A stretch of DNA of 64,000 bases from an uncultured delta proteobacterium (lineage in GTDB: Bacteria; Myxococcota_A; UBA9160; SMWR01): contig CAWHTE010000011.1 of assembly GCA_963832165.1 (NCBI GenBank), forward strand, positions 128,001-192,000, given 5' to 3'. The notes beneath the pieces are model-generated. The model was not told where the DNA came from. It did no database searches and saw nothing but the letters and a program-made list of their open reading frames with translations. Position 1 is the stretch's first letter; the number at the start of each line of letters is the position of its first letter. Both the position numbers and the translations under genes were made by a program. Below, in pieces: positions 1,449-47,134 of the stretch.

Positions 1449-2228
1449 TCAGGGGAGCAGCGCCGCGAGCGCCGCGGCGAGCGCGCGCCGCTGCGCGGCC
1501 GAGGCGATCAGGCGTTGGTTGAGCTCGAGCTCGATGCCCAGATAATGGCGTGCCGGGAGCTCGCGCCGCAGCGCCGTCGTGAGTCCGTCGGCATCGCCGC
1601 GGTAGGGCGCGTTGCGGCGCACGCCGACCCCGGGCAGTGCGCGCGCGAGCCGCCGCTGCCAGACGAGCGCGAGCGAGCGCTCCGCGCGGCGCTTCGGGTC
1701 GTAGAGGATTCCGATTCCGAAGTCGCGCCGCATTCCGCGCAGCACGGGTGTGAAGCTGTGCACCGCGAGGTGCAGCACGGGGCCCGTGCGCTCGGCGAGC
1801 GCCGCGCGCACGCGCCGCCAGTGCGGCCGGTGATGCCGATCGAGCAGCGCGTCCCGGCGCGCGCGCGGAAGCCCGCGCGTATGCGCCGAGAACACCGCGG
1901 GGTTGTGCGGCGAGCGGTTGAGATCGACGAGCAACCGCGTGGTGGTCGCAGAGAAGAGCGGCGCGCGCCAGGCACGCGCGAGCCGGCGCGCCACGTCGAG
2001 CGCTCCGGCGTCGAAGCCGCGGTGCGAGGCGAGCGCGCGGCCCGCGTGCGCGAACAGCGAGCGATCGCGGCGCGGGACGCGGTTGCCGCCGTGCTCGCAC
2101 GTCACCACCATTGCCGGGCCTTCGCGCTCGCTGATCGCTCGCGCTCGGGCTCCGGCCTTCGCTCGGCTTCGCCTCGCTGCGCGTCGGCTGACTTCGTCAG
2201 CCTCCTTGCGGCGCTCGGGTTTAGCCAC
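1449..2228 (-). CDS. N-formylglutamate amidohydrolase family protein (start GTG 2228 or ATG 2111)
   Basis: TCEHGGN, HRGFDAGA, TRLLVDLNR, HSFTP, GILYDP, RRNAPY, ELELNQ motifs; the 5' extension is made of hairpin-repeat DNA. Confidence 0.85.
   Translation of the reverse strand: MAKPERRKEADEVSRRAARRSRAKAGARARAISEREGPAMVVTCEHGGNRVPRRDRSLFAHAGRALASHRGFDAGALDVARRLARAWRAPLFSATTTRLLVDLNRSPHNPAVFSAHTRGLPRARRDALLDRHHRPHWRRVRAALAERTGPVLHLAVHSFTPVLRGMRRDFGIGILYDPKRRAERSLALVWQRRLARALPGVGVRRNAPYRGDADGLTTALRRELPARHYLGIELELNQRLIASAAQRRALAAALAALLP
2154..2202 (-). repeat. Hairpin element family B variant plus adjacent GAA-triloop hairpin
   Basis: Minus strand CGCGCAGCGAGGCGAAGCCGAGCGAAGGCC (core 2161-2177) and GGCTGAC-GAA-GTCAGCC (2186-2202). 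Confidence 0.7.
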
Positions 2229-3465
2229 GCAGCAGGCGCCCCTCGCGCAGGCAATCGGCGAGCTCGCGGTACAGCGCGGTGAGCGCCTCGCGGGTCGGCT
2301 TCTCGCCGACGCGACTCACGATCCGGCGCGCGAGGCACCCCTGCTCGAGCAGCACCTCGAGCGCGGGTCCGTGCTCGTCGCGTTCGCCGCCCGACGCGAG
2401 GTGGCGCAGCGCGAGCGCCTGCCAGACCTCCTGGGCGCTGCGCACGGTGCCGTCGAGCCCGAGCGCACGCAGGTAGTCCGCGTCGTCGACCACCGCGCGC
2501 TCGGCCTGCGCGGTGGTGCGTTCGAGCAGGTCGGCGAGACCGGCGGTGGAGAGCGCGCGCAGGCGCGCCTGGTGCGCGCGGTCGGGTTCGCACAGCGCGC
2601 GCAGCGTGCGCGAGACCGCCCACGCGATCGCGAGGTCGGCGCGCGGGCACTCCTGGACGTCGAGCACGCGGATCTCGAGCGCCATGCGGTCGAAGCGCGC
2701 GATGCAGCCGCGCGCGTTCACCCACTCGTGCTGGAGCGTGCCGTCGGCGTCGAGCGGCGCGAGGTCGGCGTAGAGCGAGGCGAGGAGCGCTCGATAGTCG
2801 GCGCGCGTGAACACGGCCTCCGGCACGACGGCGCCGGTCAGCGAGGGAACCCGGCCCGCGTTGCGCCGGTACACGTCGAGGCGCGTGTCGAGCAATCCCA
2901 GGTGGCGACCCTCGACGAACGGCGACGCCGCGGCGAGCGCGGGCAGGAGCGGCAAGAGCGCGCGAGCAGCCGCGTGCAGGCGCCCGAACTGATCGTCGTC
3001 GGCGAACGGCAGGTTCAGATGCGCGCTCTGGAGGTTCGCCCAGCCGTGGCCGCGGCAATCGAAGATGCGGTCGAAGGTCGCGTAGATCTCGCCGTCGCCG
3101 TGGGGCCAGAGCTCGAACTCGCGCGCGGGATCCATCCACGGATGCATCGCGGTCGGCAGCAGGCGCGCGCCGTGCGGCGCGAGCAGCGCGTCGATCCGCG
3201 CCGTCTCGCCCGAGAAGCCGCGCGCGAGCCCGGCGAGCTCGGGCGCGGGGCCGTTCGTCTTGATCTCGACCACGTGGCGCGCGAGCTCGTTCGACCACGC
3301 GAACGCGCCGCGCTCGATCTCGTTCTCGATCGCGCCGTGCTCGGCCTCGATCAACCGGTCGGCGATCGGGCGCACGTCGAGCGTGTTCGCATCGACGATC
3401 ATGTACTCGAGCTCGACGCCGTAGGCCTCGAACAGCCCGAGCGCCGTCGAACTAGCTGCGGCCAT
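2221..3465 (-). CDS. Glutamate--cysteine ligase family 2 (GCS2/YbdK-like carboxylate-amine ligase)
   Basis: GVELEYMIVD, NELARHVVEIKT, AMHPWMDP, NLQSAHLNLPF, ARFDRMALEIRVLDVQE. Confidence 0.88.
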   Translation of the reverse strand: MAAASSTALGLFEAYGVELEYMIVDANTLDVRPIADRLIEAEHGAIENEIERGAFAWSNELARHVVEIKTNGPAPELAGLARGFSGETARIDALLAPHGARLLPTAMHPWMDPAREFELWPHGDGEIYATFDRIFDCRGHGWANLQSAHLNLPFADDDQFGRLHAAARALLPLLPALAAASPFVEGRHLGLLDTRLDVYRRNAGRVPSLTGAVVPEAVFTRADYRALLASLYADLAPLDADGTLQHEWVNARGCIARFDRMALEIRVLDVQECPRADLAIAWAVSRTLRALCEPDRAHQARLRALSTAGLADLLERTTAQAERAVVDDADYLRALGLDGTVRSAQEVWQALALRHLASGGERDEHGPALEVLLEQGCLARRIVSRVGEKPTREALTALYRELADCLREGRLLRG

Positions 3466-46321: not shown

Positions 46322-46678
46322 TCATCCACCTGCGCGCTTGACCGTGTATCCCTTCGCCTCGAGCTCCTTGATCACGGCATCGCGGTGGTCGCCCTGGATC
46401 TCGATCACCCCGTCCTTGACCGTGCCGCCGGTGCCGCAGCGCTTCTTCAGCTCGCCCGCGAGCTCGCGCAGCGCGTCGTCTTCGGCCGCAACGCCGTGGA
46501 TCGTCGTGACGGGCTTGCCGCGCCGGCCCGCAATCTCGCGCTTCACGCGCACGATGCCATCGCCGTCGCGCGGTACGCTGCGCGGATTCGCGCGGCACAC
46601 GCACTGCTTCAAGGGCCGCCCGCAGTGCGGACACGTGCGTCCGTGCTGGCTCGAGTAGACGATCCGGTCGCGGCTCAT
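46322..46678 (-). CDS. yciH: SUI1 family translation initiation factor
   Basis: GRRGKPVT, LKKRCGTGGTVKDGVIEIQGDHR; N-terminal CxxC. Confidence 0.9.
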   Translation of the reverse strand: MSRDRIVYSSQHGRTCPHCGRPLKQCVCRANPRSVPRDGDGIVRVKREIAGRRGKPVTTIHGVAAEDDALRELAGELKKRCGTGGTVKDGVIEIQGDHRDAVIKELEAKGYTVKRAGG

Positions 46679-47134
46679 GCCCGTCTCATGGACTTCGCTC
46701 GTCTTCGGCTCGCTGCGCGGACTTGCCAATCTTCGGTGCTCGGTCATCGCGCAGCGATCCTGGACCACCGCGATCCCGGCCGCCTCGAGCCGCGCCGCGC
46801 ACGCGTCGTGCCGGATGCCGAGCTGGAACCACACGCAGTCGGGGCGCCAGGGCAGGGCGAGGATCTCGTCGACGTGTCCGGGCAGATGCGCGGGCGCACG
46901 GAACACGTCGATCAGGTCGACGCGCTCCGGCAGCGCCGCGAGGTTCGGCAACGCGGGCGCGTCGCCCCACTGCGAGAGCTTCGGATTCACTGCGCGCACG
47001 TTGTAGCCGGCTCGCAGGAGGTACTGCGGCACGATCCAGGCGTCCTCGCCCCATTCCGCCTTCGCACCGAGCACGGCGATCGTGCGTGTGCGTTCGAACA
47101 CGCTGCGCAGCTCGGCGTCGTTCTCGAGCGGCAC
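46679..47134 (-). CDS. CoA-binding protein (YccU-like); no stop codon before yciH
   Basis: TIAVLG, VNP, VDLIDVFR, VWFQLGI, VVQDRC. Confidence 0.85.
46688..46726 (-). repeat. Hairpin element family B, diverged copy
   Basis: Minus strand GCAAGTCCGCGCAGCGAGCCGAAGACGAGCGAAGTCCAT. Confidence 0.85.

Follow-up and report, generated by a model that had tools for sequence, protein, structure and literature searches.

A GCAA-tagged repeat inserted in frame into conserved bacterial proteins and mostly co-oriented with genes

Introduction

Repeats that invade proteins are already known. RPE-1 to RPE-3 and the coding repeats of Wolbachia and Methanocaldococcus lie in frame in unrelated conserved genes, the host protein being apparently intact and the mover unknown, according to passages of PMC2229807 and PMC10969869. 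Since 2000 it has been asked by what means RPE-like repeats move and whether the peptides they encode are useful or only tolerated. The GCAA repeat described here resembles these repeats in lying in frame in conserved genes whose orthologues are empty at the same site. However, RPEs are stem-loops of 105-146 bp with terminal inverted repeats, whereas the unit of the GCAA repeat is 42-45 nt long, lacks such ends and is not a Watson-Crick palindrome along its length. In the literature passages searched we found no mention of a strand rule for RPEs.

REPs tagged with GTAG or CGTC, including intragenic ones, are described in passages of Di Nocera 2013 (PMC3733652), and the RAYT/TnpA-REP system in passages of PMC6006769. 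The GCAA repeat shares with REPs its size, a 5' tetranucleotide at the foot of a hairpin, the formation of clusters and the presence of some copies in coding sequence, but its tag is GCAA(G) as compared to GTAG/GTGG or CGTC. The Watson-Crick basal stem of REPs is 5-13 bp long; the first hairpin of the GCAA repeat has 2-8 bp in many variants and 1 bp in the 41-mer subfamily, and its core needs G.A pairs. Clusters of the GCAA repeat are all same-strand (0 of the 165 loci, or clusters, in the genome are mixed), in contrast to the inverted dimers of REPs, which lie mostly downstream of genes; only 9 of the 165 loci are located between convergent genes as compared to 80 of 151 REP arms. A cognate tyrosine transposase flanked by the repeat is typical of REPs, whereas no transposase gene flanked by the GCAA repeat was found.

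Bacterial MITEs (Correia, ERIC, RUP) are small, non-autonomous and sometimes fused in frame, as described in passages of PMC2229807. Unlike them, the GCAA repeat has no terminal inverted repeats (its ends are not complementary), no TA ends at its borders and no target duplication, tests for 2-4 nt at the ends of 98 copies having given the level of shuffles. Derivatives of IS200/IS605 or IS91 are oriented by the replication strand, whereas the GCAA repeat follows gene direction on either skew strand. A fixed target tetranucleotide and ends shared with an autonomous element are further marks of such derivatives; the left flank of the GCAA repeat is only weakly C-rich. GNA mini-hairpins and G.A zipper folds are stable in DNA, are formed by the purine strand alone and occur in phage origins, promoters and human satellite DNA (passages of PMC13037366 and PMC11014236); the same GNA and G.A motifs are used here to build a dispersed bacterial insertion element. 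The GCAA repeat works like RPEs and intragenic REPs and is a member of neither. No description of the family was found in the literature searched, which did not extend to the consensus figures and intragenic REP list of PMC3733652, where a related consensus is possible; the family and its strand rule appear to be undescribed.

Results

Copies in the window and their host genes

The window, the whole 64-kb stretch of DNA that was analysed, contains three exact copies of a 41-mer, as reported in the first-pass annotation, against 0 matches in 100 shuffles. The two diverged copies named there were also recovered (36.7 bits for the shortened copy and 20.2 bits for 2154-2183 on the minus strand; Table 1), and at 5 of 5 loci the purine strand is indeed the sense strand of the gene that hosts or adjoins the copy. 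The 41-mer is free of stop codons on both strands, as had been emphasized, but this is not a special property, since 40% of random genomic 41-mers are likewise stop-free; once the 4 following bases are included, 45 of 98 copies carry a stop triplet on one strand. As a further correction, two of the five window copies are probably untranslated leaders.

Table 1. Copies of the GCAA repeat in the window and the genes around them
Feature	Position	Strand	Details
Nested composite	11503-11585	+	~90 nt (30 codons), in frame within host gene
Composite parts	11503-11522; 11523-11563; 11570-11585	+	Left arm of older copy; full 41-nt copy, then short tail; right arm of older copy
Host gene of composite	11258-11941	+	227 aa, Cys-rich C-terminus; gene call
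Full copy (7815-7855) flanked on both sides by degenerate arms of older copy	7795-7869	-	5' leader of ZIP transporter gene
ZIP zinc transporter gene	6986-7780	-	Start GTG 7780; Pfam PF02535
Full copy forming C-terminal tail of ABC ATPase	36977-37017	+	Adjoins permease gene start
Host ABC ATPase gene	36032-37027	+	Pfam PF00005, PF13732
Shortened copy where CoA-binding gene meets SUI1/YciH gene	46688-46725	-	
Fused CoA-binding and SUI1 open frame	46322-47134	-	270 aa; PF13380 residues 17-133, PF01253 residues 193-263
Long-first-hairpin variant	2154-2209	-	Intergenic, between GCS2 gene and FGase gene

Orthologues of the 227-aa protein are split or gapped at query residues 84-113, which correspond to the composite insert, and its relatives match both flanks of the insert. 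This protein, for which Pfam and NCBIfam gave no family match, is here given the provisional label QueG-like. The nested copy in the leader of the ZIP gene is probably untranslated, and the position of the GTG start is used by all 8 aligned orthologues. The tail site of the ABC ATPase is empty in 4 of 5 same-genus orthologues and is filled in G002 too. No stop remains at the shortened copy, and therefore the CoA-binding and SUI1/YciH genes lie in one open frame; in G003 and G005 they are separate genes with a stop/start overlap, while in G004 the junction holds a different composite plus a stop. The intergenic variant sits between a stop at 2221 and a called start at 2111, and consists of a GCAAG tag at 2209, a variable hairpin with a GAA loop and the core (2154-2183) with a swapped inner stem.

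Tag, core and non-canonical fold

At its 5' side the element has a GCAA tag, after which come a first hairpin whose stem varies in length and whose loop is usually GNA, a core of 25 nt and a loose tail rich in G; in the 41-mer subfamily of the window the first hairpin is shrunk to 5 nt. Each position of the GCAA(G) tag is conserved at 94-99% in 98 copies. Among foreign copies the tag is found at most 30 nt upstream in 77 of 96, with even spacing in 70 of the 77; in foreign loci 48 of 77 first hairpins close perfectly on a (G/A)NA loop with stems of 2-8 bp, GCGAAGC being the commonest (16 of 77).

The element had been called a hairpin on first reading. Conventional DNA folding with ViennaRNA gave no improvement on shuffles (for 5 of 5 strands folded, z 0.15 to 1.41), but covariation points to a non-canonical fold. 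The core is a palindrome only with sheared G.A pairs (C-GCA-GC-GA-GCC-GNA loop-GGC-GA-GC-GAA-G), its loop reads G/A-N-A with N free, and its positions 20 and 26 are C-G in 103, G-C in 40 and unpaired in 4 of 147 copies. The pattern of GA tandem plus GNA with 3-bp stems yields 160 pairings as compared to 4-8 for six control patterns. The genome's own GTAG REPs, which flank a true RAYT, follow this GNA and GA grammar as well. Covariation and known DNA chemistry thus make it likely that the purine strand, tagged with GCAA, folds by means of GNA triloops and sheared G.A pairs, a fold of which the complement would be incapable. Such a fold is missed by standard palindrome and RNA-folding searches, and therefore similar families may be overlooked elsewhere.

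Insertion into conserved proteins

Orthologue alignment revealed empty sites in purH, radA, birA, tsaC and the QueG-like window gene, in agreement with the earlier proposal of an RPE-like, non-autonomous mini-element with in-frame insertion into proteins. The net gain in coding hosts is mostly 45 or 42 nt: +45 in purH (5 of 5 orthologues), +45/+48 in radA (4 of 4), +45 in birA (3 of 4), +45 in a luciferase-like gene (1 of 1) and +45 in tsaC relative to the closest of 4, while the inserts of G004 relative to the source genome are +42, +42, +42 and +39; with the nearest relative ~85% identical in DNA, these alignments give net gains and not exact element ends. Often 14-15 amino acids are added in this way to otherwise conserved proteins. 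In RadA, the receiving loop is short (12-14 aa) in 80 of 120 proteins, and repeat-like peptides were recognized by eye in at least 9 of the 120, in two sense frames and in antisense. A RadA model with the insert keeps its fold (pLDDT 87), the insert forming a helix extension and a loop.

An artefactual origin of the intragenic copies, whether from assembly or from long open frames in 70% GC DNA, is exceedingly improbable. Such a reading could draw on the leader positions of two window copies and the commonness of stop-free sequence, and also on the gene calls, which come from an in-house hexamer model and include at least one 'internal' case (C11:613913) that is likely an artefact of an upstream frameshift. 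However, the insert lies within a single Pfam envelope in 10 of 19 host proteins scanned (hand count), conserved sequence lies on both sides of it in the single-copy genes purH, radA and birA, RadA with the identical repeat peptide is present in two other public assemblies, and the empty-site alignments largely refute the artefact already.

The description of the repeat as colonising genes is overstated: 58 of the 165 loci are read through by an upstream gene, and the majority (107) are not. All three reading frames do occur in hosts, as had been noted, but unequally (11:11:1 inside proteins, p 0.005), the polybasic frame being avoided (1 of 23). This avoidance implies, if indirectly, that the inserts are translated. 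The antisense frames are more hydrophobic than the sense frames (KD -0.5 to +0.7 vs -1.1 to -1.8). We infer that the repeat-encoded peptides are tolerated passengers and not functional tags. The repeat is very probably a mobile element that adds residues to proteins.

Copy number, spread and nesting

The genome holds 76 copies with at most 3 mismatches and 98 with at most 6, while a reversed control gave 0 with at most 12. Related genomes hold between 0 and 110 copies, and the exact core is present in 33 of 60 relatives. The repeat is mostly confined to one class (23 of 47 genomes inside, 3 of 203 outside), across which the core is nearly invariant, and it had no match in viral, phage and plasmid sequence sets. 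The repeat is genuine and mobile.

The near invariance of the core, together with the many copies at operon junctions and in leaders, would also be expected of a cis element, domesticated for a role in mRNA stability or translation start or as a DNA-binding site, that is kept for its host function and whose coding copies are side effects. We regard this as very improbable: most sites are lineage-specific, 27 of the 60 relatives lack the exact core, a search of the window against Rfam matched no known RNA family, and the free N of the GNA triloop suits DNA over RNA chemistry (passages of PMC13037366).

The left end of the element is sharp, with a weakly C-rich left flank, and the right end is fuzzy; 42-nt tandem arrays occur. 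Among the 98 copies, 21 sit between both arms of an older copy and 4 inside GTAG REPs; nesting within the element is at the tip of its own core hairpin. The sites of 65 non-nested copies have no hairpin, so that a general insertion into hairpin tips was rejected and targeting of tips holds for nested copies only. In many proteins the nested form reappears as a single 87-nt unit, and therefore part of the nesting is composite copying.

Orientation relative to genes

The first-pass annotation had the repeat always co-oriented with genes, which proved too strong. At 125 of the 165 loci the two flanks lie on one and the same strand, and of these 104 are co-oriented and 21 anti-oriented; the ratio is 25:1 in G004 and 30:9 in other genomes (78 loci). 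The bias is present on both GC-skew strands (38:5 and 15:4, p 0.44; four contigs, skew as proxy) and thus follows transcription and not replication, by which a replication-strand rule is rejected. Strand asymmetry of the tail motif was likewise rejected as the cause, being too weak (weighted ratio 1.0-1.1; 0.8-1.7 for tail-like motifs).

The bias is stronger in coding sequence (55:3) than outside it without upstream read-through (51:19, p 0.0009), and therefore selection contributes and could be the entire cause. Insertion would then be strand-neutral, antisense copies being lost because of hydrophobic peptides, a stop or harm to the mRNA (e.g. C-rich Rho loading) and sense copies being harmless before ribosome-binding sites. 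The hydrophobicity of the antisense frames fits this reading, as does the finding that 34 of 98 copies end at most 40 nt from a co-oriented start, the tail often being rich in purines. However, the youngest and older copies are equally biased (32:4 and 41:8, p 0.55), the 51:19 bias remains outside coding sequence, and anti-oriented copies are still found at N-termini, in leaders and in a RadA loop, so that selection as the only cause seems unlikely. Of the proposed preference for the non-template strand, the strong preference for the sense strand stands, whereas targeting at insertion fits the data but is unseparated from selection. We lean slightly towards a bias that is partly set at insertion.

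Search for a mover and a possible mechanism

The search for a mover covered RAYT, Y1, PF01797, GIY-YIG, PF13366, DUF559 and IS91 Y2. The genome's RAYT was rejected: it is flanked by a different REP, which is abundant only in G002, the nearest element is 41 kb off, and none of 60 relatives has this RAYT. Of the 33 carriers, 13 have a multi-copy Y1 family, as compared to 1 of 27 non-carriers (kin not being independent); this family, which in the window is represented by a protein encoded at 9018-9725, is associated with the repeat but not required. PF01797 proteins as a whole were rejected, with no match in G003, G004, G005, G016 and G037 (18-89 exact cores; 68-99% complete). Also rejected were GIY-YIG (mostly one long-frame match per genome and no link), GxxExxY PF13366 (1 of 61), DUF559 (1 of 5), IS91 Y2 (3 of 5, absent from G000 and G004) and the genes between close element pairs. 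The core was present in the fetched flank at 3 of 62 Y1, Y2 and nuclease loci checked, none of them in the own genome, and the neighbours of 275 loci (clusters read by eye) included no recurrent mobile gene.

The absence of a mover family that tracks the repeat fully, among those searched, would fit a process without a transposase, in which the folded purine strand is copied by enzymes of the host, through template switching, through gap repair or from an RNA-derived copy, at DNA that transcription exposes. The fuzzy right end, tandem 42-mers and composites, the confinement mostly to one class, and the absence from viral, phage and plasmid sets, point the same way. On the other hand, a sharp conserved tag at the foot of a hairpin is a signature of HUH substrates (passages of PMC6006769), the spread of copy numbers among kin is what the gain and loss of a trans-acting factor would produce, and metagenome bins often lose transposases. 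We therefore consider copying by host enzymes improbable. A mover of the HUH/Y1 type is a possibility that we rate a little short of even.

The explanation that we put forward is a lineage-wide non-autonomous insertion element acting as single-stranded DNA. An HUH/Y1-type enzyme supplied in trans would recognise the tag and hairpins and paste the purine strand into single-stranded DNA where it is exposed, chiefly on the non-template strand of transcribed regions; this would result in the ~3:1 co-orientation outside coding sequence. In proteins, as the counts suggest, only inserts of triplet length in tolerant loops or tails and in the two hydrophilic sense frames would tend to survive, raising the bias to 55:3. 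Taken whole, this account seems to us as apt to be right as wrong. A bolder version, which is rather doubtful, makes the repeat a third class of tagged repeat (GCAA) with a non-Watson-Crick single-strand fold, written into the non-template strand by an enzyme other than the known RAYT, IS200/IS605 and IS91, possibly a host protein. If true, a transcription-targeted mobile element would routinely extend, fuse and loop proteins across a whole bacterial class. To the question of RPE-like repeats the family adds two testable features, namely a fold that evades searches and a strand rule tied to transcription, not replication. It also offers many dated natural experiments: the sites number in the hundreds, there are orthologues without the insert, and a single loop of RadA was hit in several frames.

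Occurrence in public data

A scan of metagenomes turned up no filled radA loops. Contigs of sequencing runs pile up on the repeat, with loose ends clustering at 11522-11523 and 11561-11562; the best word share of a run was 0.19, contigs only, and the organisms are other than the source, so these contigs give no evidence on expression or polymorphism in the source genome. The repeat also explains odd-looking peptides and fused genes in the public annotations of these genomes, one search having returned 26 proteins of unrelated families.

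Distribution of the element

The element is a real, lineage-wide, protein-invading repeat, and such repeats are already known as a kind. The three exact 41-nt copies reported in the first-pass annotation lie at the positions it gave, with zero matches in shuffled sequence, and the two diverged window copies (46688 and 2154) score 36.7 and 20.2 bits, respectively. The genome holding the window (G000; 5.5 Mb, 70% GC) contains 76 copies at up to three mismatches and 98 at up to six, and the reversed pattern yields 0 copies at up to 12 mismatches. Profile search of this genome gave 173 matches of at least 20 bits (0 in the reversed genome), which merged into 165 clusters, none of them of mixed strand. 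The exact 27-nt core is present in 33 of the 60 relatives (1–110 copies each), and a looser core in 23/47 sampled genomes of the same class as compared to 3/203 outside it (hand count). Among the matches listed (80 of at least 115 stretches), all titled records carrying the core are metagenome bins, most of them labelled Myxococcota or Deltaproteobacteria. The element was searched for in viral contigs, plasmids and phages and was not found there.

Four tandem 42-nt copies are located on a contig titled Eisenbacteria (L220:1201-1353), reflecting either cross-phylum transfer or a misbinned contig. Six copies occur within 19 kb at G000:C4:72503-91401, several inside or adjoining genes that we take, from resemblance, to encode respiratory complex I subunits; this clustering hints at a link with strong transcription.

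Placement and gained length

Our own hexamer gene model for G000 comprises 4,786 genes and 85% coding sequence. The upstream gene reads through 58 of the 165 loci and does not read through the other 107. Of these read-through loci, 24 are internal with the purine strand as sense; at the C-terminus, 31 have the purine strand as sense and 3 are antisense. Set against a coding share of 85%, this makes the element rarer in genes than expected, though core genes have also been entered. A cruder pass added 15 loci within the 5' portion of called genes, 10 of them sense and 5 antisense, where start calls are uncertain. Among 19 Pfam-scanned hosts, all outside the window and selected from loci that looked internal, the insert lies within one domain envelope in 10, including PurH, RadA and BirA (hand count). 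Of the 'internal' calls, at least C11:613913 seems to be spurious, the result of a frameshift upstream. In a public protein (P0130, G000:C11:613080-614912), two copies in tandem join PanB and PanC domains; because PanB seems to end naturally in a different reading frame, the likely cause is a frameshift upstream or an assembly error.

Alignment of host genes with orthologues, suggested in the first-pass annotation, revealed empty sites for purH, radA, birA and tsaC. The gain is 45 nt in purH (against 5/5 relatives), 45 or 48 nt in radA (4/4), 45 nt in birA (3/4) and 45 nt in both tsaC and a luciferase-like gene against the relative G004, the remaining three relatives being more divergent for tsaC. 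Conversely, 30 G004 loci were set against G000; two had no syntenic pair and most others are clearly empty in G000. Four G004 coding inserts add 42, 42, 42 and 39 nt; one of these is antisense, as is one 45-nt insert in G000. The element has a sharp left end and a right end that blurs across positions 42–48; a target duplication, looked for at the ends, was not found. Copies in G004 also form head-to-tail arrays with a period of 42 nt, and a 29-residue composite (45+42 nt) recurs in public proteins. Among 120 RadA proteins, a sample biased by retrieval with an insert-bearing query, 80 have a short loop and at least nine carry peptides resembling the repeat, read in either of two sense frames or from the antisense strand. 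An AlphaFold model of the filled RadA retains the fold at a mean pLDDT of 87, and the insert prolongs a helix and forms a loop.

The genes purH, purD and tsaC are consecutive (L046/L051 region, G000:C3:158509-162114) with one copy in each, and the purD end is filled in G004 too. The same BirA loop holds an unrelated-looking 33-nt G-rich insert in another relative (G006, stretch L077), so this loop appears tolerant.

Positions of window copies, GTAG REPs and candidate transposases
Feature	Position	Strand	Context
Copy	2154		between two genes
Copy	7815		upstream of conserved ZIP start (8/8 aligned orthologues)
Nested composite	11503-11585		inside 227-aa gene
Full copy	36977		tail of ABC ATPase
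Shortened copy	46688		junction of CoA-binding gene and SUI1 gene, intervening stop removed
GTAG REP	31488-31526	-	
GTAG REP	46288-46320	-	
GTAG REP	60035-60067	-	
True RAYT	L057:122-742 (G000:C4:535459)	-	flanked by REP dimers
Y1/HUH family member	window 9018-9725	+	weak PF01797 and NF047646 matches

For the nested composite, relatives align to residues 2–83 and ~110–224 of the host, and both blocks are adjacent in G004, so ~30 codons have been gained. The ATPase tail site is empty in 4/5 same-genus orthologues. The CoA-binding and SUI1 genes stay separate in G003, G004 and G005, and the SUI1 start codon is still present; since this copy is shortened, an assembly error is possible there. The single open frame joining the CoA-binding protein to SUI1/YciH (window 46322-47134, minus strand) is seen in G000 only, and the G004 junction is also filled, by a different composite. 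Given their positions, the copies at 7815 and 2154, two of the five, are probably untranslated.

Orientation and translation

Element orientation follows transcription. The purine strand is the sense strand in 104 of 125 G000 loci where both flanks code on the same strand (p 2e-14); thus the bias claimed in the first-pass annotation is strong, but its 'always' is not sustained, and stop-freeness does not stand up as a notable property. Co-oriented to anti-oriented loci number 25:1 in G004 and 30:9 among 78 loci of other genomes, scored using the G000 gene model. The bias persists whichever GC-skew strand the genes lie on (38:5 and 15:4), young copies (32:4) show it as older ones do (41:8), and in divergent spacers the co-oriented gene is the nearer one for 16/22 copies. 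Strand asymmetry of the tail motif was unable to produce it. Loci in coding sequence are more strongly biased (55:3) than the rest (51:19; p 0.0009). Frames inside proteins are used 11:11:1 (p 0.005 against the expected share), the avoided frame carrying a net charge of +6. Selection therefore shapes the observed distribution, and this avoidance indirectly suggests that inserts inside proteins are translated. Coverage of the organism was looked for in public sequencing runs and not found.

A proposed purine-strand fold

Standard folding supported no structure for the 'hairpin' of the first-pass annotation. Positions 11–35 read C-GCA-GC-GA-GCC-GNA-GGC-GA-GC-GAA-G, which becomes symmetrical if G.A pairing is permitted. 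Covariation is seen in the inner stem (103 C-G, 40 G-C, 4 unpaired), and in the loop the first base is G or A, the last is A and the middle is free. With the inner stem set to 3 bp, the pattern gives 160 pairings as compared to 4–8 for six control patterns; 2-bp stems are less clean (81 against 7–129) and 4-bp stems gave nothing above controls. GCAAG lies just upstream in 77/96 copies of other genomes, at an even distance in 70, because a first hairpin of 2–8 bp sits between tag and core; a [GA]NA loop closes it in 48/77. PMC13037366 describes GNA mini-hairpins, which contain a sheared G.A pair, as having exceptional stability in DNA and far lower stability in RNA, and tandem G.A pairs and zippers allow a purine strand to fold by itself (PMC11014236). 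We infer a non-Watson-Crick fold of the purine strand with good comparative support, which would explain the working strand of the element as the earlier hairpin did not.

The upper stems of the GTAG REPs, a 151-copy family in G000, likewise require G.A pairs and GNA loops, suggesting that non-canonical pairing is perhaps general in REP bulges.

Comparison with known repeats

Protein invasion by repeats has precedent as a phenomenon. The element works like the Rickettsia palindromic elements (portions of PMC2229807, PMC3767692 and PMC10969869) but differs from them in size and terminal repeats. It also works like the intragenic REPs in repair and synthesis genes already listed by Di Nocera and colleagues (PMC3733652, in part). 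It departs from GTAG/CGTC REPs in tag, inverted dimers, convergent location and cognate transposase, and from MITEs in having neither terminal repeats nor duplication. In the main text of openly readable papers, no published description of the family was found. Two of its features likewise had no match there: the single-stranded fold with non-Watson-Crick pairing that follows a GCAA tag, and the alignment of orientation with transcription.

Candidate movers

HUH substrates are marked by a tag at the hairpin foot, no duplication and one working strand (PMC6006769, in part). Since the element shares these features, an HUH-type mover is favoured, and by this analogy the chances that such an enzyme would move it in trans are about even. 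G000 encodes one true RAYT (NF047646, 200 bits), flanked by GTAG REPs that use the same GNA and GA grammar as the element; 4 of 98 elements lie inside GTAG REPs and 21 of 98 in the core tip of another copy of the element. As mover this RAYT was rejected, being present in 0/60 relatives with its REP abundant in G002 only; it probably arrived recently, accompanied by a REP burst. GIY-YIG, PF13366, DUF559, IS91 Y2, genes between element pairs and recurrent neighbours also failed. An 11-copy Y1 family in G000, with one member in the window, occurs in 13/33 carriers as compared to 1/27 non-carriers, kin not being independent in these counts, and is missing from 7/17 genomes with at least 10 cores. 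The family has 3–19 matches in 14/60 relatives. Its window member has low-GC flanks and short inverted motifs of its own, and is similar to the tyrosine transposases associated with TIRs that PMC3733652 names.
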